Program-made: the position numbers and the translations under genes
Notes under the pieces: model-generated
Told to the model about the DNA's origin: nothing
What the model saw: only the letters and a program-made list of their open reading frames with translations
Database searches by the model: none
Source: an uncultured Chloroflexia bacterium
Lineage (GTDB): Bacteria > Chloroflexota > Limnocylindria > Limnocylindrales > CSP1-4
NCBI GenBank assembly: GCA_963707215.1
Contig: CAVPPB010000002.1
Location: 288,001-352,000 of the forward strand
Length of the DNA stretch: 64,000 nucleotides
Direction: 5' to 3'
In this document: positions 13,890 to 55,469 of the stretch, piece by piece
How positions within the stretch are numbered: position 1 is the first letter of the stretch
How the letters are laid out: each line of letters starts with the position of its first letter

Positions 13890-16652
13890 CTACGCAGTGA
13901 CGGCCACCGCCTCCGGCTCGGCCGCGACCGTCTTCTCCACCGGTTCGACCTGCCAGACGAGCTTGCGGATCTCGGAGACCACGATCACCAGCAGGCCGAC
14001 GACGATGCAGACAGCCCACTGCTCGATGGTCAGGCTGGTCGTGCTCAGCAACCGAGTGAGGACGCCCAGCTCGGTCATCAGCAGGATCGTCGCCATCGAG
14101 GCCAGGCTGGCGAGGATGAACGGGCGGTCCGCCAGGACGCCGAGGCTGAAGGCCGAGTTGCGCTCGTCCTTGGTCGCCAGCGAGAAGGCCAGGTTGCCGA
14201 TCGAGAAGGTGACCATGCCCATGGTCCGGGCGATCGTGTCGTCGTAGGTCTGGCTCGCCCAGTAGATGACGGCCAGCGAGCCCCCGCCCATGACCAGCCC
14301 CATGATGGCGAGCCAGATGAGCATCGGACGGTCGAGGAGCGCTTCCTTGGAAGGCCTCGGCAGGCGCTCCATCAGCCCTGTGGCCGGTTTGCCGAAGCCG
14401 AGGGCGATGGCCTGGAAGACCTGGATGGTGAAGTTCATGAACAGGGTCTGGGCCGGGTAGAACGGGACGCCGCCCAGGACGTTCAGGAGGCTGGAGCCCA
14501 GGAACGTCGCGATGTAGCCGATCAGGACGGCGACCTGGAACCGGATGTACTTCTTGAGGTTGTCGTAGAGGCCGCGCCCCAGCTCGACCGCCTTCACGAT
14601 CGTCGCGAAGTTGTCGTCGGTCAGGATCATGTTGGCGGCTTCCTTGGAGACCTCCGTGCCGGTGATCCCCATGGCCACGCCGATGTCGGCGCGCTTCAGC
14701 GCCGGGGCGTCGTTCACGCCGTCGCCGGTCATGGCCACGATGTGGTCCTTCTTGCGCAGGATGTCGACCAGGTGGACCTTGTCCTCGGGAGCCACCCGGG
14801 CGATGACACCGATGCCGTCGATCTCGCGCATGGCCTCGTCGTCGCTCATCGCCCGGAACTCGGCGCCGGTGATGGCCCGGCCCCGGATGCCGAGCTCGCT
14901 GGCGATCGCCCCCGCCGTCACGGCATGGTCGCCAGTGATCATCCGGACCTGGATGCCGGCGGCGTGGGCCTCCTTGATCGATGCCTTGGCCTCCGTCCGC
15001 GGCGGGTCGACGATGCCGACGAGGGCCAGCAGCGTCATCCCGTCGAGGAGGGGCAGGAGGTCGGCGTCCGGGTCGAAGGTGGACGGGTCGAAGTCCTTGC
15101 GGCCGGTCGCCATCACCCGGAGACCCTTGGCGCCCAGGCGCTCGTTCTCGTCCATGTAGCGCTGGCGGAGGTCGTCGTCCACTAGCCGGGTGCCGGACAG
15201 GTCGGGGGTGACTACCTCCGTGCCACGGGCCAGGAGCTGGTCGGGTGCGCCCTTCACGAAGCAGCGGACGACCTCGTTGCCGGACTCGTCCGTCATCCGG
15301 TGGAAGGTGGCCATCATCTTGTACTCGGCGTCGAACGGCAGCGTCGCGACCCGCGGGTAGGTCTCCCGGGTGGCGACGGTGCTGACCCCGCCCTTCTCGG
15401 CGAGGACCACCAGCGCTCCCTCCGTCGGGTCGCCGATCAGCTCGCCGTCCTTGACGACGGCGTCCGAGGCCAGGACGCAGGGCAGGAGGAACGGGTCGAG
15501 CGGGACGTCGACATCGCCGCCGACCCTGCTGATGGTGCCCTCGAACCCATAGCCCGTGCCCGAGACCGTGTGGCGCCGACCGGGGATCGTCAGCTCGGTG
15601 GCGGTCATCTGGTTGAGGGTCAGGGTGCCGGTCTTGTCCGAGTTGATGGCCGACGTCGACCCGAGGGTCTCGACGGAGCGCAGCTGCTTGACGATGGCGT
15701 GGGCCTTGGCGAGGGTCTGCGTGCCGTACGAGAGGATCGTGGTGATGACGGCCGGCAGGCCCGTCGGGATGGCCGAGACGGCGAAGGCGATGGCGGTGAC
15801 GAACAGGACGTCGAACGGCTGGTCGTACCGGAAGTAGCCGATCGCGATGGAGGCGATGAGGGCGACACCGGCGATGATCAGCAGCTGCTGGGTCAGGACG
15901 TTGATCTGGCGGGTGAGCGGGGTCTCCTCCTCGGGGGCCTCCTGGAGCATCCCGGAGATGTGGCCGACCTCGGTGCTCATGCCCGTCGCGGTGACCAGCA
16001 TCTCCCCGGAGCCGCGGGTGACGTTCGTGTTCATGAAGGCCATGTCGACGCGGTCGCCCAGCGCGGCATCGGCGGCGACCGGAGCGACCTGCTTCGATGC
16101 CGGCAGGCTCTCGCCGGTCAGGGCGGCCTCCTCGAGCTCGACGGTCGCGGCCTTGATGAGCCTTCCGTCAGCGGTGATGACGTCCCCGGCCTCGAAGGCG
16201 ACGATGTCGCCGGGGACCAGCTCCTCGGCCGGGATCTCCACCAACTCGCCGTCGCGACGGACCCGCGCCTTGACGATCATCATCTGCTGGAGGGCGGCCA
16301 CGGCGGCCGCGGCCTTGCCCTCCTGGCTAAGGCCGAGGTAGGCGTTGAAGACCGTCAGCACGATGAGCATCACGCCGGTCGAGACCTGGCCGACCGGCCA
16401 GATGCTGGCGATGCCGGCGACCAGCAGGACGATCTGCATCAGGTCCGCGTACTGGCGCAGGAAGGCCCGCCAGCGCGGCTCGGTCTCCTGCTCGGCGAAC
16501 TTGTTGGGTCCATAGGTCGAGCGTCGCGACGTGACCTCGACGGCGCTCAGGCCCCGCGCAGGATCGACACCCTGCGCTGCGAGCGCCTCCTCCACGGACA
16601 GGGCATGCCAGGCGGTCGTGGGCGCCGCAGGGGCCCCCGGTTGCTCGCTCAT
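13890..16652 (-). CDS. P-type ATPase, type II-like cation transporter with atypical ion-binding residues
   Basis: LTGES, DKTGTLT, GDPTE, KGAPD, MITGD, TGDGVNDAPALK motifs; GGGAG SD before ATG 16652. Confidence 0.92.
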   Translation of the reverse strand: MSEQPGAPAAPTTAWHALSVEEALAAQGVDPARGLSAVEVTSRRSTYGPNKFAEQETEPRWRAFLRQYADLMQIVLLVAGIASIWPVGQVSTGVMLIVLTVFNAYLGLSQEGKAAAAVAALQQMMIVKARVRRDGELVEIPAEELVPGDIVAFEAGDVITADGRLIKAATVELEEAALTGESLPASKQVAPVAADAALGDRVDMAFMNTNVTRGSGEMLVTATGMSTEVGHISGMLQEAPEEETPLTRQINVLTQQLLIIAGVALIASIAIGYFRYDQPFDVLFVTAIAFAVSAIPTGLPAVITTILSYGTQTLAKAHAIVKQLRSVETLGSTSAINSDKTGTLTLNQMTATELTIPGRRHTVSGTGYGFEGTISRVGGDVDVPLDPFLLPCVLASDAVVKDGELIGDPTEGALVVLAEKGGVSTVATRETYPRVATLPFDAEYKMMATFHRMTDESGNEVVRCFVKGAPDQLLARGTEVVTPDLSGTRLVDDDLRQRYMDENERLGAKGLRVMATGRKDFDPSTFDPDADLLPLLDGMTLLALVGIVDPPRTEAKASIKEAHAAGIQVRMITGDHAVTAGAIASELGIRGRAITGAEFRAMSDDEAMREIDGIGVIARVAPEDKVHLVDILRKKDHIVAMTGDGVNDAPALKRADIGVAMGITGTEVSKEAANMILTDDNFATIVKAVELGRGLYDNLKKYIRFQVAVLIGYIATFLGSSLLNVLGGVPFYPAQTLFMNFTIQVFQAIALGFGKPATGLMERLPRPSKEALLDRPMLIWLAIMGLVMGGGSLAVIYWASQTYDDTIARTMGMVTFSIGNLAFSLATKDERNSAFSLGVLADRPFILASLASMATILLMTELGVLTRLLSTTSLTIEQWAVCIVVGLLVIVVSEIRKLVWQVEPVEKTVAAEPEAVAVTA

Positions 16653-16911
16653 CGTCTCCCTCGCTTCATGCGCACCGGCCCCGGCCCCGGGATCGGTCTC
16701 GAGCCAGTGTCCGAAGATGCTACCCCACGGGTCCGGGCCGACTCCGGGCCATGAGGCCCGGACGCCTGTCGCCACTAGACCCGATGGCGCGACGACGCGC
16801 ATCCTCCCTTTGGGGGGGGTATGGGACCGGCCCTGGACGCCGCGTGCGCTCGGGCGGGGCGCGACGCATCCGTCGGTGGGTCGGTCGGCGACCGAACCCG
16901 CCGATCCCCGC

Positions 16912-17715
16912 TCAGCCCAGTGAGAGCCCCTCGCCGTCGCCGAGTGGTCCGACGGGAGGGGCACCGGCCGGCAGCCAGCGGACCGATCCTGGCCCGTGGA
17001 CCCGCCAGGTGCGGCTGCGGTCCCCATCGCGTCCCTCCATCCGCTCCGTCGCTTCGACGACGGGCTCGCGGATGATGCCGGTCGCCTCGTCGAGGCCCAG
17101 CCAGCCCGGTGCATCCCGGCCGGCCGCCGTGGCTACGGAGGCTGCCCAGATGACCTGCCGGCCGCCGTCGAAGTGGGGGACCACGGCCACGCCGGGGATC
17201 AGGCCGAGGGCCCGACGCGGTCCCTCCTGCGTCCACGTCCAGCCGCCCAGGACCATGGCACCGGCACTGGCCCCGGCGACCGCGGCCCCTCGAGCGTGGG
17301 CAGCCAGGATGGCCCTCCACGCGAGGCCCTCCTCGAGGACGTCGAGGAGGTGGCTCGGGTCCCCGCCGACGAGGTAGACGACGTCGGCCCCAGCCAGCCG
17401 GCCGGCCGGGCCGCTCCGATCGGCATCCTCCCGCTCGAGGACGCCGATCCCCTCGACGCGCACGGGGATGCCGGTCTCGCCGGCCGCCTGCTCGAAGGCG
17501 GTCCGTCCGTGGGCGACGGCCAGGTCCGGTCGGCTCCGCGCGGCGGCCGTCGGCACGATCGCGACCCCCAGTCCGTCGGCGTCCCCGGCCGTGCCCACAC
17601 AGGCCCGGTCGCGGGGCCCGCGCGAGGCTGAGGCTGCCTTGAGCAGCGCCCCCAGGAAGCGCCCGTCGTCAGGTCCGAACTCGCCGCCGCCGTGCAGGCC
17701 GATCGGCCCGCTCAC
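16912..17715 (-). CDS. Peptidase S51 / cyanophycinase-like protein
   Basis: LHGGGE N-terminus, IVPTAA, YLVGGDP, GASAGAM nucleophile motif, VPHFD, GLDEATG. Confidence 0.8.
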   Translation of the reverse strand: MSGPIGLHGGGEFGPDDGRFLGALLKAASASRGPRDRACVGTAGDADGLGVAIVPTAAARSRPDLAVAHGRTAFEQAAGETGIPVRVEGIGVLEREDADRSGPAGRLAGADVVYLVGGDPSHLLDVLEEGLAWRAILAAHARGAAVAGASAGAMVLGGWTWTQEGPRRALGLIPGVAVVPHFDGGRQVIWAASVATAAGRDAPGWLGLDEATGIIREPVVEATERMEGRDGDRSRTWRVHGPGSVRWLPAGAPPVGPLGDGEGLSLG

Positions 17716-18089
17716 CGTCCGCGCTTCGGCTCGGTGCCCTCGCCGCCGTCGGATCCCGTGGGCTCCCCGGACGGCTCGGGCCCCTCGGACGGCGGGGTCA
17801 CGTCCTTGATCCTGGGCTGGGCGGGCAGGGGTGGCGATCTGCGCCCGAGGAGCCGGTCCAGGCCCGGACCCAGCGTCACGAACGGGGCCAGGAAGCCGAT
17901 GATGAGGATCGGGACCAGGAAGCGGGCCGGCCCCCGGACCACGGCCGCCGCGACGGCCAGGGTGAGCATCGCCACGTAGTAGGCAAGCAGCGCCTGCTGG
18001 CTCCAGCCGGCCAGGTAGAGGCGGCGGGTCGGGATGACCATGACGAGGGCCAGGATCCCGACGAGCGCGAGCAGGATGAGTGGCGACAC
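17712..18089 (-). CDS. Hypothetical membrane protein
   Basis: Three hydrophobic helices and an IKDVTP tail; TATCAT 7 nt before GTG; stop overlaps next start. Confidence 0.65.
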   Translation of the reverse strand: MSPLILLALVGILALVMVIPTRRLYLAGWSQQALLAYYVAMLTLAVAAAVVRGPARFLVPILIIGFLAPFVTLGPGLDRLLGRRSPPLPAQPRIKDVTPPSEGPEPSGEPTGSDGGEGTEPKRGR

Positions 18090-18307
18090 TTCCCTGATGA
18101 TACGGGCAGGGGGATCGCGGCCGGCGCAGCCGGACGAGCCGGCCGACCGGGCGCCGGAGCGGCGCGGTCGGCCCATCTGGTGGTGACCGTCCGGGGCACC
18201 TCCTGTCACTTGGTCCCTTCCCGGGCGTCTTCACGGTGCTGGGCTACGATGGAGGCGACCGTTCCAGGGCCATCCCGGTGCCATCCCGGGCCGTCGGGGT
18301 CCCGATC

Positions 18308-19678
18308 ATGATCGATACGCTGCTCCGGCGACCGCGGGCGTGGATCGTCCGCTGGCGCCCCGTCCTGCCACTCCTCGCCGCCGAGCTCGTCGTGTGGCTC
18401 GGCTTCGGCGCGCTCCTGCCGGTCCTGCCGCTCTACTTCCGTGACCACGGCGTGGACCTGGCCACGATGGGGATCGTCATCGCCGCCTGGCCGGCGGCGC
18501 GGCTGGCGGCCGAGCCGGCCTTCGGCTGGCTGGCCGACCGGACCCGGCGGGTGCCGCTCATGCTGGCCGGCCTGCTCGTCTTCGCGGCGGCGACCGCCCT
18601 GCCGCTCGTCTTCGTCGGTCCGGCGGCCTTCCTCGTCCTGCGTGCCGTGGCCGGGCTCGCCTCGGCGGCCTACGACCCGGCTGCCCGCGGCTACCTGGCC
18701 GACGCCGTGCCCCTGGAGCGTCGCGCGGAGGCCTTCGGGATCTACGGCGCCGCCCAGATGGGCGGTCTGCTCCTGGGACCCGCGATCGGCGCCCTCGGCG
18801 CCGGGCTCTTCGGCGGCTACGAGTTCGTCTTCGGCTTCTGTGCCGTCGCCGCGGTCGTCGGCGCGATCGGGGTCGGCCTCTTCGTCAAGGAGCTCCGAGC
18901 TCCCCGGACGGCGAGCCATCCGCCCGGAGCGGGGATCGCCGGCCTGCCCATCGACGAGCCGGTCCTCTCCGAGGCGGCCGGCCGCGGCCTGGTCGAGCCG
19001 ATCGCCGAGCTGCCGTCCGATGCCGCGCGACGGCCGCCCAGCCTCCGCAACCGGATCCTCCTGGCGGCTCTCGTCATCCAGTTCGGGAGCCTCTACGCGA
19101 CCGGCGTATACGAGGTGATGTGGAGCCTGTTCCTCGAGTCCCGGGGCGCCGGGCTCGACCTGATCGGGCTGACCTTCATGATGTTCGGCGTCCCGATCCT
19201 GCTCCTCTCGCCGTACGCGGGGCGCCTGGCCGATCGCCGTGGGACCCTCGGCTTCGTCGTTCTCGGCTCGGTCGTGGCGGCGATCGCGGGGGTGCTCTAC
19301 ACGATCGTCCCGGAGGTCTGGATGGTCGTCCCGGTCATCCTGATGGAGTCGGCCGGGATCGCCTTCCTGGGCCCGGCCCTGTTCGCCATCGTGGCCGCGG
19401 GCAGCCCGGTCGGCCGATCGTCGACCGCCCAGGGGATCTTCGGGGCCGCGGGGACGATGGGCACGATCGTTGCCGCCCTGTCGGCCGGGTTCCTCGCGGA
19501 GATCGACCTGCGGCTACCGTTCTGGGCGTTCTCGGCGGTCGTGCTCGTGAGCCTCGCCATCGGCCTCGCCATCGGCGGTCGGTCGATCGCCGCCATCCAA
19601 CCGAACGCAGGCGACCGGGATCCCGCCTCGGCCATTCCCGGGGAGCCCGTCACCGCCGTCGGGGAGGCGCTGCCGTGA
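18308..19678 (+). CDS. MFS transporter
   Basis: About 12 TM helices; GWLADRTRR and GRLADRRG motif A repeats. Confidence 0.9.
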   Translation: MIDTLLRRPRAWIVRWRPVLPLLAAELVVWLGFGALLPVLPLYFRDHGVDLATMGIVIAAWPAARLAAEPAFGWLADRTRRVPLMLAGLLVFAAATALPLVFVGPAAFLVLRAVAGLASAAYDPAARGYLADAVPLERRAEAFGIYGAAQMGGLLLGPAIGALGAGLFGGYEFVFGFCAVAAVVGAIGVGLFVKELRAPRTASHPPGAGIAGLPIDEPVLSEAAGRGLVEPIAELPSDAARRPPSLRNRILLAALVIQFGSLYATGVYEVMWSLFLESRGAGLDLIGLTFMMFGVPILLLSPYAGRLADRRGTLGFVVLGSVVAAIAGVLYTIVPEVWMVVPVILMESAGIAFLGPALFAIVAAGSPVGRSSTAQGIFGAAGTMGTIVAALSAGFLAEIDLRLPFWAFSAVVLVSLAIGLAIGGRSIAAIQPNAGDRDPASAIPGEPVTAVGEALP

Positions 19679-37521: not shown

Positions 37522-39144
37522 TCAGTGGCCGGCGGCCTGGCCGTGCCGGGCATCGAAGACGGGCCGCTCCGAGCGGATCTCCGGCAGGTGGTCGAAGTTG
37601 TAGGCAGGCGGCGGCGAGGCGGTCGCCCACTCGAGGGTGTTGCCCTCCCACGGGTCATCGCCGGCGTGCTTGCCGCCGCGCAGCGAGACGAAGACGTTGA
37701 ACAGGAAGGGCAGGATCCCGAGGGCGATGACGAAGCCGCCGATCGTGGCCACGAGGTTCAGGTCGTTCCAGCCGGCGCTCGCGCTGTAGTCGGCGATGCG
37801 CCGGGGCATCCCGGCCAGGCCCAGCTGGTGCATCGGGAAGAAGGTCAGGTTGAAGCCGATGAACAGCAGGACGAACTGGAACTTGCCCATTGTCTCGTTG
37901 AGCATCCGGCCGGTCATCTTGGGGAACCAGTAGAAGATCCCGGCGAAGACCGCGAAGACGGACCCGCCGAAGAGCACGTAGTGGATGTGGGCCACGACGT
38001 AGTACGTGTCGTGGAGGGCGAAGTCCACCGGCACCGAGGCGTGGAAGGCGCCGTTGATCCCGCCGATGAGGAACATCGTCAGGAAGCCCAGGGCGTAGAG
38101 CATCGGCGTGGTGAAGCTCAGCTGGCCGCGGAACATCGTGGCGATCCAGTTGAACATCTTGACGCCGGTGGGGATGGCGATCAGGAAGGTCATGAACGAG
38201 AAGAACGGCAGGAAGACCGAACCGGTCGTGAACATGTGGTGGGCCCAGACCGAGAAGCCCAGGGCCCCGATGCCCGCGGTCGCGAAGACGAAGGCCTTGT
38301 AGCCGAAGAGGGGTTTGCGGCTGAAGACCGGCAGGACCTCGCTGATGATCCCCATCGCCGGCAGGATCATGATGTAGACGGCCGGGTGCGAGTAGAACCA
38401 GAACACGTTCTGCCACAGCACCGCGCTGCCGCCCAGGGCCGGGTCGAAGAAGTGACCGCCGTAGTTGCGGTCGATGAAGAGCATGATCAGGCCGCTCGTC
38501 AGGACCGGCGTGGCCATGAGGACCAGGACGCTGGTCACCAGGACCGTCCAGACCATGATCGGCATCCGGAAGAGGGTCATGCCCGGCGCCCGCATCTTGA
38601 AGATCGTCACCAGGAAGTTGACGGCGCCCAGGATGGAGCTCGTCCCGATGAGGGTCACGGCCATCAGCCAGAGGTCGACGCCGGTGCCGGAGAAGGCCGC
38701 CCCCGAGAGCGGCGGGTAGGAGGTCCACCCAGCGGCCGCGGCGCCGCCGTCGACGAAGAAGCCGGCGCACATGAGGATGCCGGCCAGCGGCAGCATCCAG
38801 AAGCTCAGGGCGTTGATCCGCGGGAAGGCCATGTCCGGGGCGCCGATCATCAGCGGCACGGCGTAGTTGCCGAAGCCGGCCAGCATCGGGATCACGAACA
38901 GGAAGAGCATCAGGCTCGCGTGCATCGTGAAGGCCTGGTTGTAGGCCTCTTCGCCGAGGATCTGCAGCCCCGGCTGGGCCAGCTCGGCCCGCACCCCCAG
39001 GGCGAGCAGGCCGCCCAGGAAGAAGAAGATGAACGAGTTGATGACGTAGAGGATCCCGATCTTCTTGTGATCGGTCGTCGTCACCCACTCGTAGATGGCG
39101 CTCCGGCGGGCGGGGATGGCGGGATTCAGGGCGGTGGTGGCCAT
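37522..39144 (-). CDS. ctaD: Heme-copper oxidase subunit I, A2 type
   Basis: TTDHKKIG, PDMAFPR, WFYSHPAVY (A2 signature), WAHHM, HDTYYVVAHIHY, GMPRR. Confidence 0.96.
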   Translation of the reverse strand: MATTALNPAIPARRSAIYEWVTTTDHKKIGILYVINSFIFFFLGGLLALGVRAELAQPGLQILGEEAYNQAFTMHASLMLFLFVIPMLAGFGNYAVPLMIGAPDMAFPRINALSFWMLPLAGILMCAGFFVDGGAAAAGWTSYPPLSGAAFSGTGVDLWLMAVTLIGTSSILGAVNFLVTIFKMRAPGMTLFRMPIMVWTVLVTSVLVLMATPVLTSGLIMLFIDRNYGGHFFDPALGGSAVLWQNVFWFYSHPAVYIMILPAMGIISEVLPVFSRKPLFGYKAFVFATAGIGALGFSVWAHHMFTTGSVFLPFFSFMTFLIAIPTGVKMFNWIATMFRGQLSFTTPMLYALGFLTMFLIGGINGAFHASVPVDFALHDTYYVVAHIHYVLFGGSVFAVFAGIFYWFPKMTGRMLNETMGKFQFVLLFIGFNLTFFPMHQLGLAGMPRRIADYSASAGWNDLNLVATIGGFVIALGILPFLFNVFVSLRGGKHAGDDPWEGNTLEWATASPPPAYNFDHLPEIRSERPVFDARHGQAAGH

Positions 39145-39157
39145 CGCGGAGACTCCC

Positions 39158-40342
39158 TTACTCGACCGTCAGGGTGCCGGTCATGTTCGGGTGGACCGTG
39201 CAGACGAAGGTGTAGGTCCCGGCCGGCAGCGCCGGCACGGCGTAGTCGCGGGTGTCGACGCCGTTGAAGATCTCGCCCAGGAAGACCGTCGCACCGGATC
39301 CGTCCTTGATCTCGACGTTGTGGGGGACCCCGGCGTCGTTGTTGGCGAAGCGGATCGTGAACGGCTGGTCGGCGGAGGCCGTCAGCTGGGCGGTGTCGTA
39401 CTCGATGTTCTGGGCCGAGATCTCCAGTACGGCGCCGGAGGGGGCCTGGCTCGGCTGGGGCTCGCCGCTCGGCTGGGGCTGCGCGCTCGGCGCCGGCTCA
39501 CCGCTGGGCTGGGGCTCGGCGCTCGGCTGCGGCGGCGGGGCGTTGGCGATCTGGTCGGCCAGCCAGGCGTCGAACTCGGCCGGGGCGAGCGCCTTGACGG
39601 TGAACTGCATCGCCCAGTGCTGGGCGCCGCAGAGCTCGGCGCACTGGCCGCGGAACGTCTGGCCCGCGAAGTCGGCCGGGATGTCGAACTCGAAGGCGTT
39701 CTCCTTGCCGGGGATCACGTCGCGCTTGAAGAGGAACTGCGGGACGTAGAAGGCGTGGATCACGTCGGGGCTTCGGAGGGTCAGGTGGACCGTCTCGCCG
39801 GCCGGCACGACCATCTCCGGGGCGAACTGGGTGAACTCGACGGTCGAGCCGTCGGCGGTCAGGTACTCGAAGGTCCACTGGTAGCGGGCGCCGATGGCCC
39901 GGATCCGGACCTCGCCCTCATCTGCGGTGGCGGCGTTGACCGAGTTGAGGGTCTGCCAGCTGATGACGAAGAGCGCCGCCACGACGATCGTCGGGATGAC
40001 CGTCCAGATCACCTCCAGCAGGTTGTTCCCGTGGATCTGCGGCGGAAGCTCGCTGTCACCGGGCTTTCGCCGGTAGCGCACGACCGCCCAGATGATCGCC
40101 CCCTCGACCAGGAGGAAGACGATCGCGGCGATGATGAAGATGATCGTGTAGAGATCGTGGATGGCCTTGCCCTGCTCGGTCGTCGGCACCGGCGGGAAGA
40201 AGGACGCCCAGACGACCCCGAGCTGGGCCACGATGTCGTTGCCGCGAAGGGCCAGGATCCCCAGGAAGACCGCGACGGTGGCCACGGCCGCGACCGTCAG
40301 GATGACGGCGGGGGAGAGGCCAGGTCTGCGGGGCGATGTCAT
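39158..40342 (-). CDS. ctaC: Heme-copper oxidase subunit II (CuA) with C-terminal cupredoxin fusion
   Basis: IHGNNLLEVIWT, YQW, DVIHAF, CAELCGAQHWAM CuA motif, PQPS linker, HNVEI...CTVHPNM. Confidence 0.92.
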   Translation of the reverse strand: MTSPRRPGLSPAVILTVAAVATVAVFLGILALRGNDIVAQLGVVWASFFPPVPTTEQGKAIHDLYTIIFIIAAIVFLLVEGAIIWAVVRYRRKPGDSELPPQIHGNNLLEVIWTVIPTIVVAALFVISWQTLNSVNAATADEGEVRIRAIGARYQWTFEYLTADGSTVEFTQFAPEMVVPAGETVHLTLRSPDVIHAFYVPQFLFKRDVIPGKENAFEFDIPADFAGQTFRGQCAELCGAQHWAMQFTVKALAPAEFDAWLADQIANAPPPQPSAEPQPSGEPAPSAQPQPSGEPQPSQAPSGAVLEISAQNIEYDTAQLTASADQPFTIRFANNDAGVPHNVEIKDGSGATVFLGEIFNGVDTRDYAVPALPAGTYTFVCTVHPNMTGTLTVE

Positions 40343-40531
40343 CGACGATCCTCGAGCTGTCGGAGGGTGTCGACCAGCGCCCACGTGGAGGGGCCGCGGC
40401 CGACGGCGTACCTTGAGCCCGTCCGGGACGCGGGGCGGACCCGGCGCATGATAGCCGAACCGGTGGCGGTTTCGTCTACCGAGCAGGTAAGCATTCGATG
40501 GATGCTCCCGTTCCGTGGGACGATTGACGCC

Positions 40532-41677
40532 GTGAGCACCCGGGCCTCCCGATGGCCAGCCGCTCGGCCGCCCGCTTTCACCCGAGGACTGATCGAGCTC
40601 GTGCTCGCCTCGGCAGGCGTGCTGGCGTTCGTTCCGCCTGCGCTTGCCCACGGTGGGCCCAACCCCGACGAGCCGGGTCCGTTCTTCGTCCTGACCGACT
40701 GGTCGTTCGACCCGCTGACCCAGGGTCTGCTGCTCGGGCTCGCCGTCCTCTACCTCCTGGCGGTCCGGGCGGTCGACCGGGCCCATCCCGGCAACCCGGT
40801 CCCCCGCTCCCGGACGCTGGCCTGGCTGGGCGGCATCGTCGCCCTCGAGCTGGCCCTGGCCTCCGGGATCGAGCGCTACGACACGACGCTCTTCTCCGTG
40901 CACATGGTCCAGCACATCCTGCTGACCCTCGTGGCGGCCCCGCTGCTGGTCCTGGGGGCGCCGCTCACCCTCGTCCTGCGGGTCGCCTCACCCGCCGTCC
41001 GGCGACGCTGGATCCTGCCGATCCTCCACAGCCGGCTGGTCCGGTTCCTCGGCCACCCACTCGTGGCCTGGATCCTGTTCACGGCCGTCATGTGGGGGAG
41101 CCACCTGACGCCGCTCTTCGACGCAGCCCTCGAGAGCGAGCCGCTCCATCGGCTCGAGCACGCCCTCTACCTGTCGACGGCGATGCTCTTCTGGTGGCCG
41201 GTCGTCGGCATCGACCCGAGCCCGTACCGGATGTCGTACCCGGCCCGGATCCTCTACCTGCTGCTCCAGATGCCGACCAACACCTTCCTGGCCGTCCTCG
41301 TCTACTCGGCGACCTCGCCCTGGTACCCGCACTACGTCACGAGCGGGCGGACCTGGGGCCCGAGCCCGCTGCTCGACCAGCAGGCCGCCGGGGCGATCAT
41401 GTGGGTATTCGGCGACCTGGTCTTCCTCGTGGCCGGGCTTCTGATGGTCGCCGCCTGGTGGCGCGACGAGGAGCGGCGAGCGGCCAGGACCGAGGGCCGG
41501 CCGGACCCGGCCCTCCAGGCGATCCGGGAGCGCGAGGTCGCCCTGGCCGCTCGGCTGGCGGCGGAGCGGGAGGCCGCGACGAGCGGGACGCCCGATGGGC
41601 GCGATGCGGCCCCCGCTGGTGCCGCCGCCTCCGGGGCCGTTGCAGGTCAGGCCGAGGGGAGCGGGGCTCCGAGGTAG
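40532..41677 (+). CDS. ctaG: CtaG (Caa3_CtaG family) cytochrome c oxidase assembly factor
   Basis: LFSVHMVQHILL..APLLVLG, HRLEH, FWWP, DQQAAGAIMW; divergent from cox operon; start uncertain. Confidence 0.85.
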   Translation: MSTRASRWPAARPPAFTRGLIELVLASAGVLAFVPPALAHGGPNPDEPGPFFVLTDWSFDPLTQGLLLGLAVLYLLAVRAVDRAHPGNPVPRSRTLAWLGGIVALELALASGIERYDTTLFSVHMVQHILLTLVAAPLLVLGAPLTLVLRVASPAVRRRWILPILHSRLVRFLGHPLVAWILFTAVMWGSHLTPLFDAALESEPLHRLEHALYLSTAMLFWWPVVGIDPSPYRMSYPARILYLLLQMPTNTFLAVLVYSATSPWYPHYVTSGRTWGPSPLLDQQAAGAIMWVFGDLVFLVAGLLMVAAWWRDEERRAARTEGRPDPALQAIREREVALAARLAAEREAATSGTPDGRDAAPAGAAASGAVAGQAEGSGAPR

Positions 41678-42652
41678 GCCCGGTAGCGATCAGGGTCCAC
41701 GTTCCCGCCGCTGACCACGGCGACGATCGGTCCGTCGAGGCCGTCCAGTCCGGCCTCAGCGGAGCGGAATCGCAGGGCCGCCACCGTCAGGGCGCCCGAC
41801 GGCTCCACCACGAGCCGGCTCTCCTCCGCTGCGAGCCGCACGCCGGCGGCGATCTCCGCCTCGCTGACCGTGACGACCGTGTCGAGCAGGGCCGAGAGGT
41901 GGGCGAAGGTCCGTCGACCCAGCGATTGGGTCCGGGTCCCGTCGGCGATCGTCCGGGAGACGAGCTCGGCCGGCCACTCGACGATGCGACCGGTCTCCAG
42001 TGACTCCCGGGCATCGGCCGCCAGCTCCGGTTCGACCCCGACGATCCGGGCTCGCGGATGGAGTGCCCGCACGGCGGCCGCCACGCCGCTGGCCAGGCCG
42101 CCGCCGCCGATCGGGACCAGGACGGCGGCGAGGTCCGGCACCGCCTCGCCGATCTCCAGCCCACAGGTTCCCTGGCCGGCGATGATCCGGTCGTCGTCGT
42201 ACGGCGGCACGACGGCCAGGCCGCGCTCGGCGGCGAGCCGTTCGGCGACCATGCGTCGCTCCTCGCTGGCCGGCCCCACGGTGACGATCTCAGCACCGTC
42301 CGCGGCGACCCGAGCCCGCTTGATCGGCGGGTGCGTCGTCGGGCATGACGACCACGCCGGGCACGCCCAGGAGCCGGGCCGCCCGGGCGACGCCCTGAGC
42401 GTGGTTGCCGGACGAGTAGGTGATCAATCCGCGAGCTCGCGCGTCCGGGGGCAGCGTCGCGGCGAGATGGTAGGCCCCACGGATCTTGAAGGCGCCGATC
42501 GGCTGCAGCGACTCGGCCTTCAGGAGCTGCCGTGCCTCGGGTCGCCCGAAGGGCACCAGGGGAGTGACCGCGGCGACGCCGTCGAGGATGCGGCCAGCGG
42601 CCCGGATCGCCTCGAGCCCGACCAGCGGCTCCACCTCGGTGGGCGCGGTCAA
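41647..42652 (-). CDS. PLP-dependent threonine/serine dehydratase (frameshift near 42320)
   Basis: [23 protein letters not shown], then in another frame IAGQGT, PIGGGGL, VEPSGA, SGGN. Confidence 0.85.
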
Positions 42653-42990
42653 CGCCCCGGGCCCAGCCGCCGCTGGCAGTCGATGCAGTGGGCGGCCCAC
42701 GGGAGCGCCTCCAGGCGCTCCTCGGCGATCGGCTGGCCGCACTCGGTGCACGTTCCATAGACCCCGGCGTCGATCCGTTCGAGCGCGGCCCGGATGTCGG
42801 CCAGGTGGTGCTCGGCCTTCTCGCGCAGTGCCAGGTCGCGCTGCTGCTCGAAGACGTGGGTCGCCGCCGCCGCCTGCGAGCCGTAGGTCATCTGACCCGG
42901 CGACTCGATCTCCTCGCTCAGCTCGGCGAGCACCCGGTCCCGCTCGGCCTCGAGAGCGGCGCGGGCGGTGGCCAGGGTCGAGTCGTCCAT
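42649..42990 (-). CDS. TraR/DksA C4-type zinc-finger protein
   Basis: [23 protein letters not shown]; TAGCAT 7 nt before ATG 42990. Confidence 0.88.
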
Positions 42991-43085
42991 GGCGGCCATG
43001 CTAGCGTGCCCGGCGACCTGCTGGAAGCGTCGTCGGTATCCTTGGGCCCACTACGACCTGGATCGAGCACCGAGAGGGAGGCGCC

Positions 43086-43256
43086 ATGGCCATCGAGAAG
43101 GACCCCGTCTGCGGGATGGACGTCGACACTGCCACGTCCCAGCTTTCCTACGAGTACGAGGGCACGACGTACTGGTTCTGCGGCAAGGGCTGCCTGCTGG
43201 AGTTCAAGGACGATCCCGAGAAGTACCTCGATCCCGACTACGTCCCGTCGATGTGA
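43086..43256 (+). CDS. Stand-alone YHS-domain protein (56 aa)
   Basis: GGGAGG SD; MAIEKDPVCGMDV..YEYEGTTYWFCGKGCLLEFKDDPEKY; too short for the ORF track. Confidence 0.88.
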   Translation: MAIEKDPVCGMDVDTATSQLSYEYEGTTYWFCGKGCLLEFKDDPEKYLDPDYVPSM

Positions 43257-43470
43257 TCCGTCCGGTCGGCGAGGCCGCGGCCCGCGCTGCGACTCCGCGC
43301 GTCGGCCCGCTCGCATCTCGTCTCGCGTAAGCGAGCCATAAGCGGAGAAGAACCGATCGACAAGCGCCGGTCGATCAGGGGCGCCTACGGTGGCCCCACG
43401 GCGACGTCGACCGGGGCTCCCGCCGCTCCGAGTCGGTCGCCGACAGGTCGGCGGACGCCGACGGGAGGCG

Positions 43471-43575
43471 ATGATGGACAGGTCCCGACGCTGGCTTCCG
43501 ATCCGGACGGCCCTGACCCTGGTGGCACTCACGGCGATCGCCCTGTCCCTGCAGGCGGGGATGCGCTGGCACTGA
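43471..43575 (+). CDS. 34-aa signal-peptide-like small protein ending LQAGMRWH
   Basis: GGGAGG SD; MMDRSRRWLPIRTALTLVALTAIALSLQAGMRWH; paralog at 54649-54747. Confidence 0.7.
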   Translation: MMDRSRRWLPIRTALTLVALTAIALSLQAGMRWH

Positions 43576-43582
43576 GCTCCGG

Positions 43583-44401
43583 CTAGCCGCGCGCCCCGGC
43601 GACCGCGCCCGAGTCGGCGGTCAGGCGGGTGGCCAGGTACACCGGGATCACCGAGAGCAGGATGGCGATGACGCCGGCCACGTTGACCAGGGGGACCTGG
43701 TTCGCCAGCCGGAAGCTCTGGAAGATCCAGATCGGCAGCGTCTTGACGCCGCCTGCCGTGAAGATCGTCACGATGATCTCGTCGAACGAGAGGGCGAAGG
43801 CCAGGAGGGCTCCGGCCAGCATCGCCGAGCGGAGCGCTGGGAAGGTGATCCGCCGGAAGGTCTGGACAGGTGTGCGCCCCCAGGTCGGCCGAAGCCTCCT
43901 CGAACGAGCGTCGACGTCCGACGCAGGCGGGCGATCGCGTTGTTGTAGACGAGCACGACGCAGAAGGTCGCGTGGCCGACGACGATCGTGAACCAGCCCG
44001 AGGGGGAAGCCGATCGTGGGCGAACGTGGCGCTGAGGGCCATGCCGGTGACGATGCCCGGCAGGGCGATCGGGAAGATGACCACGAACGAGATCGTCTCG
44101 CGACCGAAGAAGCGGTAGCGGGCGACCGCCAGCGCCGCCAGCGATCCGAGCAGGAGGGCGACCAGGGTCGCCCCCAGCGCGACCGTCGAGCGAAGTCAGG
44201 AAGGCCTGCTGGAGGCCGGTGTTGCGCAGCGCGTCTCGGCGAACCAGTCGCAGGGTGAAGCCGGACGGCGGCCAGGCGGCCGTGCCGCCGGGTTGAAGGC
44301 GTAGATGACCAGATCAGGGCGATCGGGAAGTAGATGAACATGAGGATCAGCCCGGTCGCCATCGCGGAGGCGCGATCCGGGTCCCGCGGCTGGCCGTCCA
44401 T
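43583..44401 (-). CDS. potC: Polyamine ABC transporter permease PotC-like (multiple frameshifts)
   Basis: [37 protein letters not shown] fragments in alternating frames. Confidence 0.75.
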
Positions 44402-45312
44402 CAGAGGGCCTCGAACGCGCCGAGCCGCCGCGCGAGCAGCAGGTAGAGCGAGCATGATCGCCAGGGGCACCAGCGACGTAGGCGGCCGCCAGCGGGAAGT
44501 TCCGGCGCCGAAGTTGACGTAGATGAGTTGCCGATGAACTGATCGTCGTCGACACGGTGGTCGGCACGATGTAGTCACCGAGCGTCAGCGAGAAGGTGAA
44601 GATCGATCCGGCGACGACGAGCCGGGAAGGTCAGCGGCAGGATGACCCGCCGGAAGGTGATCCAGGACTGCCCACCGAGGTCGGCCGACGCCTCGAGCAG
44701 CGAGCCGGGGATGCGCTCGAGGCCGGCGATAGACCGGCAGGATCATGTACGGCAGCCAGAGGTAGACGAAGACGAGCCAGACGGCGACGTCGCCGAAGCC
44801 GGGACCGCTCAGGCCGAGCGGCTCGAGGACCCAGTTGAGGACGCCGTCCTCGGCCAGGATCAGCCGCCACGAGTAGACCTTGATGAGGTAGCTCGCCCAG
44901 AGCGGCATCGATGACCGCGACCACCAGGATCGCGTTGCGCATCCGCGGCGAGGCGACCCTGGCCATGTAGTAGGCGATCGGCAGGGCCAGGATCGCGCAG
45001 GTCAGCGGTGACGCGCGATCGGCCATGAGCACGCGTCCGGAGGGTGATCGACGGGGTAGCGGCCGTCTGATCAGCGCGACGAAGTTGTCGAGGGTGAGCT
45101 CGTAGACGATCAGGCCGGTGAAGGGTCCCGCGTCCAGAAGGCGTTGAGGAACAGGATCAGCGAGCGAGCCCGAGGTAGACGATGACGAGCCAACCCATCG
45201 GCAGGCGCCAGCAAGGCTGCCAGCCGGACCGAGGCGTGCCGGTGGAGCCAGCTCGCAAGCCGTCGAGCCGGCGTCGGCCGGGGGCCTGGATCCGGCTCAC
45301 CTGGGTCGTCAT
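44401..45312 (-). CDS. potB: Polyamine ABC transporter permease PotB-like (multiple frameshifts)
   Basis: PLWASYLIKVYSWRLIL, YLWLPYMILP, EASADLG fragments. Confidence 0.72.
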
Positions 45313-45395
45313 CGTCTCCGTGACTCTAGAAGCGTCGGCCCGGGACCCACGGTGCGGGGGCCCCGGCCGACGGCTCTGCTGTGGTCGGGAGGCCG

Positions 45396-46592
45396 TCAGC
45401 CAGCCCTGATCTCGTGCCAGGCTTCTGGATCCAATCGTCGAAGCCCTTGCACTTCACGTCCGTCCGCCCGTCGACGCACTCCGCCACCGGCGTCTGCCAG
45501 TACCAGACGTCCGGTCCAGAACGCGTCTCGCCGCGTGGAAGATGTCGCAGTGGTCGGGGTCGGCGGTGAGCTCGCAGGACTTCGAGTTGCCCGGCGCCTC
45601 GCCGAACCACTCGGCGATCGGACGTTGATCGCGGGCGAGGTCATGTGGTTGACGAAGGCGTAGGCGCAGTTCGGGTTCTTGGTCTTCGAGTTGATCATCC
45701 AGGTGTCGGACCAGCCCGTCGCGCCCTCCTTGGGCTTGACGACCTCGACCGGCACCGTCGGATCCTCGCCCTGGAGGAGGTTCGTGATGACCTGCCAGGT
45801 CGTCCCGAGGATCGTGTTGCCGCTCCGGAACGACGTCCATCTGCTTGGGTAGTCGCGCCCAGTACTCACCGACCGCCGGCTTCTGCTGCTTGAGCAGGTC
45901 GACCGCGGCCGCGAACTGCGTGTCGTCGAGCGCGTACGGGTTCTCGATGCCGAGGTCGGGCTTCGTCGTCATCAGGACGACGGCTGCGTCGGCGATGTAG
46001 ATCGGGGCGTCATAGACGGAGAACTTGCCGTTGTACGGCGAGCCGGGTCGAACATCTCGGACCCAGCTTCGTCGGTGCCGGGCGTGACCTCGTCGGTCCG
46101 CCACATCAGGAGGTTCGAGCTCCGCGGCCGTGCGGGACGCCGTAGTGGACGCCGTCGACCGTGTTGTACGGCTTGTTCTTGAGGTCGCTCGAAGATCTCG
46201 GCGTAGTTCGGGATGAGGTCGACGTTGACCGGCTGGACGAAGCCCGCCGGCGACCGAGCCGAAGGCTGGCGTCGCCCGAGGCGGAGATGACGTCGAACTG
46301 CTCCGGATTGGTCGGGAACAGGCGTGTACGCCTCGTCGGAGGTCCCGAAGATCTGGACGGTGATCGTCGCAGCCGGTCTCCTCTCGAAGGGGGTCACCCA
46401 GTCGACGGCCGGGTCGGTCGAGCCGTCCTCGACGTAGCCCGGCCAGGCCAGCACGTTGATCGCCTGACCCTCGTCCTCGCCGAGCTCGGTGGGCAGGCTC
46501 CGGCGCCGGCGACGGGCTGTGCTTCCGCTGCTGCACGCCGCGACGACGAACGCCGCCGTGGCAGCGATCGTCAGGATCCTGCGGATCGTCAT
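45396..46592 (-). CDS. potD: Polyamine ABC transporter substrate-binding lipoprotein PotD-like (multiple frameshifts)
   Basis: Lipobox [35 protein letters not shown] fragments. Confidence 0.75.
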
Positions 46593-47692
46593 GCCGTTGA
46601 TCTCCTCCTCCGCGTGCTCTGCCCCATCCACGATGGGGAGGCAGTGCTGTCGCTTCCAGATGAGCCGGACCGCCCGGCCCTGCGCGGCGAGCGCCTCGGT
46701 CGAGGACGTGTGCAGGTTCTGCTGGGTCACGACGAGCTCGCCGCCCGCGTCGAGCGCGACGATGTAGCGCGTGTCGGGCCCGACGTAGACGACATCCCGG
46801 ATCCGCCCCGGGCGCCGACGTCGTCCGGCCCCGGCACGCTGTCCTGGATCGCGCCAGGTGGATCTTCTCCGGCCGGACGGTGAACGTCCCGTCGCCGGCC
46901 GACGATCGCTCCCGCGACGTCGCCGATGAGCAGGTTCGACGTCCCGACGAAGCCCGCGACGAACCGCGGTCGCGGCCGCTCGTAGACCTCGGCGGGGCGC
47001 CGACCTGCTCGATCCGGCCCTTGTTGAAGACGGCCAGGCGGTCGCTCATCGTGAGCGCCTCCTCCTGGTCGTGGGTCACGTAGATGAAGGTGATCCCGAC
47101 CTCCTGCTGGATCCGCTTCAGCTCGATCTGCATCTCCTCGCGGAGCTTCAGGTCGAGCGCGCCCAGCGGCTCGTCGAGGAGCAGGACGCGCGGTCGGTTC
47201 ACGAGCGCGCGCGCGAGCGCGACCCGCTGGCGCTGGCCGCCGGACAGCTGCCCTGGCTTGCGGTCCTCGTAGCCCTCCAGCCGGACCATCTCGGAGGGCG
47301 TCGGTCACGCGCGCTGCCGCTCCGGCCTCGGGCACCTTGCGGACCATCAGGCCGTAGCCGACGTTGTCGCCGACGGTCATGTGCGGGAACAGGGCGTAGT
47401 CCTGGAAGACCGTGTTCACGTCGCGGTCGAACGGCGGCACGCTGGTGACGTCCTGGCCGTGGAGCTCGATGCGGCCCTCCGTCGGCAGCTCGAAGCCGGC
47501 GATCATCCGCAGCGTCGTCGTCTTGCCCGATCCCGACGGGCCGAGCATCGAGAAGAACTCGCCGTCGGCGATGTCGAGGTCGATCCCGGCGACCGCCTCG
47601 ACATCGCCGAAGCGCTTCGTGACCGCGATGAGCCGGACCGCCGGCTCGGTCCGGGCGGTCCTCTCGACTGGATCGGCTGCGGTGATCGTCAC
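46589..47692 (-). CDS. potA: Polyamine ABC transporter ATPase PotA-like (multiple frameshifts)
   Basis: [54 protein letters not shown]. Confidence 0.82.
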
Positions 47693-54648: not shown

Positions 54649-54747
54649 CTAGAACCAGCGCCGGCCGGCCTCGAGCGCGAGCGCCATCGACGCCAGCGCC
54701 GAGAGGACCAGGACCACCCGGACGGTCTCGAGCTTGATCCGCTTCAT
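54649..54747 (-). CDS. 32-aa signal-peptide-like small protein ending LEAGRRWF
   Basis: GAAGGGAG SD; MKRIKLETVRVVLVLSALASMALALEAGRRWF; high GC3; not in the ORF track; paralog at 43471-43575. Confidence 0.75.
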   Translation of the reverse strand: MKRIKLETVRVVLVLSALASMALALEAGRRWF

Positions 54748-54905: not shown

Positions 54906-55469
54906 TCAGGCGGCCCCGGGGCCGGCCGTGTCGGCTGATGGCTGCCCGCTGGTCGGCTGCCGCATCCCGGCCACGATGGCGACGGCGATGCCGACCCCGA
55001 TGAGCACGTCGCCGACCGAGAACACGTTGGCCAGCGGCAGCCATGACGGCATCGCGAACACGTCGGTGAGGAACCAGAGGGCCGGATCCGCGACGACGAT
55101 GCTGTTGGCGGCGTCCTCGGCCGGTCTGCCGAGCGCCGCCAGGGCGTCCGGGTCGGCCGGCATCGCCCCGCCGTTGGCCAGGATCGCGGCCAGGTTGAGC
55201 CCCGCGCCGACAGCGACGAGGGCAAGCCCGGGGATGCGGACGTTGACCAGCACGACGACGAGAACGAGCGCTGTCGAGCCGACGTAGAGGATCGACACCA
55301 GGTCTTCGACGAGCGACGCGCCGAGATCGCTGAACAGGACCACCTGACCGCCCAGCCCGAGGAGGGCGAGCGGCAACCAGCGGATCCGAAGATCGGCCAA
55401 CCGGCCCAGGCGGCCGCCGGCGAGGCGGCCGGCGATCAGGCCCGCGAGGACCGCGTAGAGGATGAACAC
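54906..55469 (-). CDS. DUF5317-family membrane protein
   Basis: GGRLGRLA N-terminus, LNLAAILANGGAMP, LWFLTDVF, VFSVGDVLI. Confidence 0.8.
   Translation of the reverse strand: MFILYAVLAGLIAGRLAGGRLGRLADLRIRWLPLALLGLGGQVVLFSDLGASLVEDLVSILYVGSTALVLVVVLVNVRIPGLALVAVGAGLNLAAILANGGAMPADPDALAALGRPAEDAANSIVVADPALWFLTDVFAMPSWLPLANVFSVGDVLIGVGIAVAIVAGMRQPTSGQPSADTAGPGAA

Follow-up and report, generated by a model that had tools for sequence, protein, structure and literature searches.

Small single-pass membrane proteins such as KdpF, CydX, AcrZ, and MgrB are accessory subunits encoded beside a polytopic partner. Other short peptides are precursors of signals. In the AgrD/AgrB pair of Firmicutes, a membrane protein of approximately 190 residues is encoded beside a short peptide with a membrane-associating segment, and the product is an internal part of AgrD. 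In contrast, in pheromone precursors of the Phr, SHP, and ComS types, the C-terminal residues are the mature signal. To our knowledge, no system of this latter kind has been described in Chloroflexota.

We analyzed a small open reading frame (ORF) at positions 43471..43575 (+) of a 64,000-nucleotide (nt) stretch of DNA, here called the window, from an uncultured Chloroflexia bacterium with a genome of 3.26 Mb in 5 contigs and a GC content of 72%. Like KdpF, CydX, AcrZ, and MgrB, the peptides of the family to which this ORF belongs have about 30 residues and one hydrophobic helix, are usually encoded beside the gene of a larger membrane protein, and were overlooked by domain libraries. Unlike those subunits, they carry a C-terminal A-G-x-R-W at the helix end, occur as several dispersed paralogues per genome, and have DUF5317, a family of no assigned function, as the candidate partner; by Pfam and NCBIfam scans, the sole comparison made, there is no sequence relation between the two groups. 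The AgrD/AgrB pair is resembled in that a membrane protein of similar size stands beside a short peptide with a membrane-associating segment, and at one locus a membrane sensor gene is present. However, the conserved part of our family is the extreme C-terminus, no histidine kinase/response regulator pair was seen, the only Pfam match of DUF5317 is PF17248, and DUF5317 has no invariant His or Cys. An AgrB-type peptidase role of DUF5317 was rejected on the last two grounds.

The ORF has two possible start codons, ATG at 43471 and ATG at 43474, and encodes 34 amino acids (aa), or 33 aa from the second ATG. Its last codon is His (43570-43572), followed by a TGA stop (43573-43575). A Shine-Dalgarno-like GGGAGG at 43463..43468 (+), which the first-pass annotation had listed as the ORF's own ribosome-binding site, is separated from the first ATG by 2 nt and from the second by 5 nt, and is also present in the aligned same-genus orthologue. 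The peptide, of no more than 50 residues, is composed of a basic N-terminus, one hydrophobic helix, and the C-terminal L-Q-A-G-M-R-W-H, with about 18-20 unbroken hydrophobic residues between the basic N-terminus and the R-W end, as read from the sequence. The coordinates and the peptide had been reported exactly, as had the partner ORF at 54649-54747. In a protein library, one match (P0129) is identical to the 33-aa form from the second ATG, as called by a gene finder, and another (P0164) is 85% identical to the peptide.

The partner ORF (54649..54747, -) encodes a paralogous 32-aa peptide that ends in L-E-A-G-R-R-W-F. It has the ribosome-binding site AAGGGAG, lies 158 nt downstream of a DUF5317 gene on the same strand, and is the best match in the genome to the family profile described below (E 2.8e-16). 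The two peptides can be aligned over their full length with 44% identity, which is concentrated in A-L-x-L-[QE]-A-G-x-R-W, and their genes are separated by 11,074 nt on opposite strands, in agreement with the approximately 11 kb given previously. This identity, the shared L-[QE]-A-G-x-R-W-x-stop, and 210 profile matches confirm that the 43471 ORF is a second member of one family. A third paralogue is located outside the window (G000:C2:433049-433138, 29 aa, GTG start). Directly after it, at G000:C2:433147-433245 (= L001 5148-5246), follows a non-hydrophobic ORF of 24 aa ending in A-G-H-R-W-S. The genome thus contains three membrane members of the family and one related soluble ORF. The soluble ORF, which ends in G-P-x-[AS]-G-H-R-W-x, is conserved at loci of three other genomes (L011, L016, and L028), showing that selection can act on the C-terminal motif even where there is no membrane helix, and in one library protein (P0248) the soluble 24-aa type is fused to the membrane peptide. 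The four copies in the genome differ at the variable positions and end in M-R-W-H, R-R-W-F, M-R-W-W, and H-R-W-S.

A further, weak profile match was found at G000:C2:20014-20079 (-) with E 0.026 and one TGA inside the match. It corresponds to a hydrophobic ORF of approximately 24 aa ending in L-K-G-F, about 1.7 kb upstream of a gene in which DUF5317 is fused to an MFS transporter. Weak matches resembling it are also present near long-form DUF5317 genes in two other genomes (G013 and G009). Judging from these matches, the ORF may be a diverged fourth type or may have arisen by chance.

At 72% GC, open frames are cheap, and the question of chance therefore matters for an ORF of this length. A six-frame regular-expression search of the whole 3.26 Mb genome for L[QE]AG.[RK]W.stop returned only the 43471 ORF and 54649-54747, whereas none of twelve order-3 Markov genomes contained a match. 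The strict motif is thus more frequent in the genome than in the simulated sequences. A hydrophobic stretch followed by AG.[RK]W was observed three times, against a mean of 0.25 in the 12 simulated genomes. The looser AG.[RK]W.stop had eight matches in the genome, the third paralogue among them, against 5.4 in the simulations, showing that the bare motif alone is not special. Since these expressions were written after the data had been seen, the case for a real gene rests on the comparative evidence.

A profile built from an alignment of 15 peptides was used to search 31 genomes of the same taxonomic family, and matches at E<=1 were obtained in 28 of them, with values below 1e-10 for many. Four genomes had a second match, located 11-13 kb from the DUF5317-linked copy or, in a same-genus genome, on another contig. 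When the window neighbors were used as tblastn queries, three genomes (G001, G018, and G012) showed the same order of genes, namely CtaG-like, threonine-dehydratase-like, DksA-like, YHS, the small ORF, and the end of a potC-like gene; a fourth (G011) showed this order minus YHS. On this gene order, the copies in these four other genera are positional orthologues of the 43471 ORF. Orthologues of the 54649-54747 peptide lie downstream of DUF5317 in relatives, so that both ORFs are conserved in related genomes. In the five aligned orthologues of the 43471 ORF, the codons of the motif differ only synonymously (Ala GCG/GCC/GCA, Gly GGG/GGT/GGC, and Arg CGC/CGA/CGG). Summed over 10 pairs, pN/pS was 0.35 in the final 8 codons, against 0.87 in the 12 helix codons that precede them; the sample is small, and the synonymous sites are close to saturation (pS 0.63). 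Toward the N-terminus, the orthologous peptides vary widely and yet remain basic and then hydrophobic throughout, which agrees with the divergent N-terminus noted previously. By the lower pN/pS of the last codons, selection is concentrated at the C-terminal end. The earlier statement that conservation is restricted to the C-terminal 10 residues was not borne out, because Ser(-11), Ala(-9), Leu(-8), Leu(-6), Ala(-4), and Gly(-3) in the helix, counted from the Trp, are conserved as well. By these comparative data, the ORF is a real, conserved gene of 33-34 residues and a dispersed paralogue with its own conserved position across genera, between the YHS/DksA side and the pot-operon side.

The upstream untranslated stretch (43340..43462, +) contains short blocks conserved among the orthologous loci, an ATAAG box approximately 100 nt upstream of the ORF and a GACCGGG...CCTCGG hairpin. 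This stretch may tentatively be regarded as a promoter and leader belonging to the ORF itself. Folded as a consensus, it has 15 predicted pairs, 4 of them with a compensatory change, and an energy of only -6.8 kcal/mol, some input sequences being shorter than the full region. A promoter scan of 43000-43800 revealed no promoter-like (sigma-70-like) site, and a terminator scan of the same interval revealed one terminator-like site on the minus strand (43378-43353). At the gathering threshold, Rfam detected only two tRNAs in the window and no riboswitch or leader near either peptide. A look-up of sequencing runs listed none of RNA, and the nine DNA runs had small shares (0.16 or less).

Upstream of the ORF, at 39000-43260, lies a block of copper- and respiration-flavored genes that is syntenic in relatives; it encodes a membrane protein resembling CtaG, a protein of 56 aa with a YHS domain (PF04945, E 3e-18), and a zinc-finger protein of the DksA/TraR type. 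Downstream, a convergent potC-like gene belongs to a spermidine/putrescine-type ABC operon (potA/B/C/D-like, 43583-47400, -). The reading frame changes inside genes of this operon, once in the potC-like gene near 43870 and again in the potA/potD-like part; on the sequence, these changes are either indel errors of long-read assembly or marks of pseudogenes. The stops of the ORF and the potC-like gene are 7 nt apart (window 43573-43585), which leaves no space for separate terminators, and the two transcripts therefore probably overlap. The immediate neighbors of the ORF are thus the YHS gene and the end of the potC-like gene, and neither DUF5317 nor another polytopic candidate is adjacent. To this extent the ORF is an orphan, as it had been called; in the genome, however, it is accompanied by a third family member and by three DUF5317 genes, not one as had been proposed.

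A search of 1.84 billion cluster representatives with the 15-peptide profile yielded 210 matches at E<=0.001, 3 of them at E<=1e-10. Among the 150 matches listed, most are proteins of 28-38 aa or longer calls with an over-extended N-terminus, and the match nearly always runs to the end of the protein. In the 150 motif instances of these matches, Ala(-4) and the Trp are present in all, Gly(-3) in 137, and Arg(-1) in 136 (Lys in 13). Within the helix, the same instances have Ser(-11) 113 times, Ala(-9) 117 times, Leu(-8) 134 times, and Leu(-6) 123 times, whereas position -5 is Glu (72) or Gly (51), and position -2 and the last residue are variable. Position-specific conservation thus reaches approximately 12 residues into the hydrophobic helix, which fits helix packing better than a discarded leader. 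The motif ends 0-2 residues from the C-terminus in 131 of the 150 instances; the number of residues after the Trp is 0 (15 instances), 1 (97), 2 (19), 3 (6), 4 (3), or at least 7 (10). Because the tail after the Trp varies, no fixed tetrapeptide is conserved, and the proposal that the precursors yield variant tetrapeptides such as M-R-W-H and R-R-W-F is unsupported.

Neither Pfam nor NCBIfam scans matched a model to the peptides. The only Pfam row was Coa3_cc (E 0.1), with 12.7 bits against a gathering score of 27, and assignment to the Coa3 assembly factors (PF09813) was rejected on this score. Ten library representatives that were looked up were named "hypothetical protein" or had no name, and the ESM Atlas contained only "hypothetical protein" clusters without names (0.88-0.90). 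The names of DUF5317 homologues and of related loci point to Limnocylindrales-like Chloroflexota. By sequence comparison, the peptides are an unannotated family of predicted small single-pass membrane proteins of these bacteria.

The stand-alone DUF5317 gene of the window (54906..55469, -) encodes a membrane protein of 187 aa with five predicted helices (PF17248, E 1.2e-26). It is one of three DUF5317 genes in the genome, two of which are stand-alone, the third being fused in frame to the MFS transporter (G000:C2 about 16300-18400, -). Two of the three membrane paralogues of the peptide lie 158-270 nt downstream of the stand-alone DUF5317 genes, the third paralogue at 270 nt. In relatives, a peptide of one of two types, ...LEAG[RK]RW. 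or ...LGAG.[RK]W., is encoded directly downstream of a stand-alone DUF5317 gene, and in three further genera a third type, ...GAP.RWF, is encoded approximately 200 nt upstream. Among 80 related DUF5317 loci, 36 contained a profile match at E<=0.001, which in 33 was directly downstream on the same strand, 7 of these 33 having two peptides in tandem; the remaining 44 had no family peptide within 4 kb. Gene order thus links members of the family to stand-alone DUF5317 genes. Among 14 longer library matches, no natural fusion of a peptide to DUF5317 was found, and open frames shared by peptide and DUF5317 in four loci were rejected as fusions since they are in a frame other than that of DUF5317.

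Co-occurrence follows the same line. In a hand tally of relatives, which leaves out G044, a peptide match at E<=0.001 was present in 21 of the 24 genomes with a stand-alone DUF5317 gene (the exceptions were G013, G024, and G041), in none of the 4 with only long-form DUF5317, and in neither of the 2 without DUF5317; here an open frame of >600 aa was taken as a proxy for the MFS fusion, which was confirmed only in the genome studied here (G000). On these counts, pairing of the 43471 peptide with the MFS-fused DUF5317 was rejected. Frames of >600 aa at the DUF5317 matches of most relatives suggest that the DUF5317-MFS fusion is widespread in the class. In a phylum-wide sample of 151 genomes, the peptide was found in 6 and DUF5317 in 48, all 6 being among the 48. 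In two genomes (G160 and G151) that belong to a different family within the class, the peptide adjoins DUF5317, and 12 DUF5317 loci (L073-L084) of 11 other distant Chloroflexota genomes contained no peptide with the motif. The relatives are not independent of each other, and such counts overstate the case; we take them as an association and not as a statistic. In one genome (G043), a family member lies beside a proline dehydrogenase gene, approximately 440 kb from the nearest DUF5317 gene.

The second stand-alone DUF5317 paralogue is adjoined by a gene for an 856-aa membrane protein with GAF, GGDEF, and EAL domains (L001 5432-8002; G000:C2:433431-436001). Homologues of this gene adjoin the same DUF5317 paralogue at six loci of relatives (L011, L016, L028, L038, L044, and L048), some of which overlap and come from one genome, and gene order and orientation vary. 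As a recurrent neighbor, the GAF-GGDEF-EAL protein may link DUF5317 to c-di-GMP.

A confident AlphaFold2 model of DUF5317 based on 30 sequences (pLDDT 84, pTM 0.79) consists of five long helices plus a conserved loop of 50 residues (99-151), which by the positive-inside rule would face outward. Residues invariant in the 30 aligned sequences include N99-G100-G101, M103-P104, T135-D136, F138-A139, and P141, as well as P145, N148, S151, and G153-D154-V155; no His or Cys is invariant among them. Two invariant Asp residues, D136 and D154, the latter within S-x-G-D-V where the last helix begins, recall the GxGD intramembrane aspartyl proteases (prepilin peptidase, presenilin, and FlaK). In contrast to these proteases, the first Asp of DUF5317 is placed by the model in a loop and not in a helix, the number of helices differs from the five of DUF5317, and no GxGD protease chain was among the fold-search matches listed. 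Foldseek against the PDB returned nothing at E<=0.001, and in a wide VIA-align search the best match, among unrelated generic helical proteins, had a Z of 8.4 (rmsd 8.1, 102 aligned). The fold searches thus pointed to no known fold of a protease, transporter, or enzyme, although a fold of the GxGD type could have gone unmatched. An NCBIfam scan of DUF5317 found nothing, and a literature search, the scope of which was sources other than subscription journals, found no paper on DUF5317 or PF17248. The proposal that DUF5317 processes the peptide is thus unsupported by the sequence and model comparisons.

Co-folding of the 43471 peptide (64-row alignment) with the DUF5317 protein of the window weakly supported binding, with a score of 0.42, whereas the best of three controls gave 0.00. 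The runs agreed in at least 81% of contacts, with a partner pLDDT of at least 60. Of 80 solved complexes, 58 passed the mark applied, as did 2 of 110 mismatched pairs; a passing score of 0.60 or under was obtained for only 7 of the 80 complexes and for both of these mismatches. Unless a good prior backs it, a pass in this weak class is wrong in more cases than it is right.

What we observed at this locus is the ORF, its conservation, its synteny, coding-type selection, gene linkage, and co-occurrence. Because conservation extends approximately 12 residues into the helix, we favor a stable single-pass partner of the stand-alone DUF5317, with the 43471 copy acting in trans, and consider the chance that this is correct to be about even. 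This reading relies on position-specific conservation in the helix half nearer the C-terminus, the Arg-Trp at the interface, close gene linkage in either order, and the co-occurrence. According to it, the peptide would insert with the N-terminus inside and the C-terminus outside, a topology predicted by the positive-inside rule, and would remain in the membrane. The C-terminal helix half (S..AL.L.AG) and the interfacial Arg-Trp would pack against a polytopic partner, most probably the stand-alone DUF5317, whose large conserved loop (99-151) is likewise predicted to lie on the outside. The peptide could then be a subunit with an accessory or regulatory role, provided in trans. Several findings fit this model poorly: the 43471 copy is not beside any DUF5317 gene, 44 of the 80 related DUF5317 loci and the genomes G013, G024, and G041 gave no peptide match, the member in G043 is far from DUF5317, and a pure helix-packing model leaves unexplained that the soluble 24-aa ORF keeps the motif.

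We weighed four other explanations. That the ORF is a chance, untranslated frame would suit DNA in which open frames are abundant, but it is contradicted by the orthologues at the same place in at least four other genera, by the purely synonymous variation at the invariant residues, by the 210 library matches, and by the absence of the strict motif from the 12 simulated genomes; this explanation is hardly credible. A type I toxin-like hydrophobic peptide restrained by an antisense RNA would have the right size and hydrophobicity, and with the potC-like stop only 7 nt away, an antisense transcript across the ORF is conceivable. However, its long-term positional conservation, the steady linkage of the family to one membrane-protein family, and the presence in a genome of several paralogues that all keep the motif strictly are not what such a toxin would lead one to expect; no repeat or mobile context was seen, and no antisense RNA gene was among the Rfam matches in the window. 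We therefore consider a toxin very improbable. The peptide might also be a small membrane protein with a partner other than DUF5317, such as the GGDEF-EAL sensor, a transporter, or a copper/respiratory assembly factor, the linkage to DUF5317 then reflecting only shared regulation or a conserved neighborhood. Consistent with this, the 43471 ORF stays near YHS and CtaG-like genes across genera, members far from DUF5317 exist in four genomes (G043, G010, G021, and G023), and the peptide has the weak similarity to Coa3_cc. Yet that match is far under the cut-off, and the whole block is syntenic anyway, so that the position of the ORF says little about its function. Moreover, none of the six relatives without a stand-alone DUF5317 gene has a peptide match at E<=0.001, and the peptide gene adjoins DUF5317 whether upstream or downstream. 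Another partner is thus unlikely, although conceivable.

The peptide could, finally, be the precursor of a short exported signal, its basic-hydrophobic part being an export or leader segment. A cut at or near the invariant Ala-Gly would free G-x-R-W-x or x-R-W-x outside the cell, made either by DUF5317, as suggested in the first-pass annotation, or by ordinary signal peptidase I. A receptor in the membrane, for example the GAF-GGDEF-EAL protein beside the other DUF5317 paralogue, could then detect the released product. The peptide is indeed similar to a signal peptide, with a basic n-region, about 15 hydrophobic residues, and, if the cut follows Ala, Leu(-3)/Ala(-1) before the invariant Gly, as in the -3/-1 rule for signal-peptide cleavage. 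As in Phr, SHP, and ComS, a peptide of precursor size carries conserved information in its C-terminal residues, and paralogues differ at few positions, all four copies in the genome being different at the variable ones. The soluble small ORF with the same C-terminal motif, the GAF-GGDEF-EAL gene beside the second DUF5317 paralogue here and at six loci of relatives, and the two invariant Asp residues of DUF5317 can also be cited in support. In contrast to Phr, SHP, and ComS, the hydrophobic segment is conserved position by position, which is unusual for an export segment that is discarded, and no RRNPP-type receptor, oligopeptide importer, or other peptide transporter was identified beside any copy in a non-systematic look. 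In addition, the tail after the Trp varies from 0 to 4 or more residues, and DUF5317 has neither a detectable protease fold nor an invariant His or Cys. No known RiPP enzyme family was found among the scanned neighbors, which are YHS, DksA/TraR zinc finger, DUF5317, HpcH aldolase, and Cation_efflux-like, and, at the third paralogue, MMPL and GAF-GGDEF-EAL. A signal precursor is, in our judgment, distinctly unlikely. Still less probable is the elaborate version, in which the family members would be precursors of (G)-x-R-W-x extracellular peptides freed at the invariant Ala-Gly. In that version, DUF5317 would process, export, or receive the peptides, the GAF-GGDEF-EAL protein would be the output at one locus, and dispersed paralogues such as the 43471 copy would supply variants in trans.

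In GC-rich metagenome-assembled genomes, small proteins systematically escape notice, and the ORF at 43471 is a 33-aa gene validated by comparative evidence alone. Its analysis defines an unannotated family with a sharp C-terminal signature, and this family is the first genomic handle on DUF5317, a widespread family of membrane proteins. If the peptide is processed, it would represent a new peptide-signal system outside Firmicutes, and, should the version with DUF5317 and the GAF-GGDEF-EAL protein be true, a peptide signal wired to c-di-GMP in uncultured Chloroflexota. If, as we favor, the peptide is a subunit, it belongs in any structural or functional work on DUF5317.
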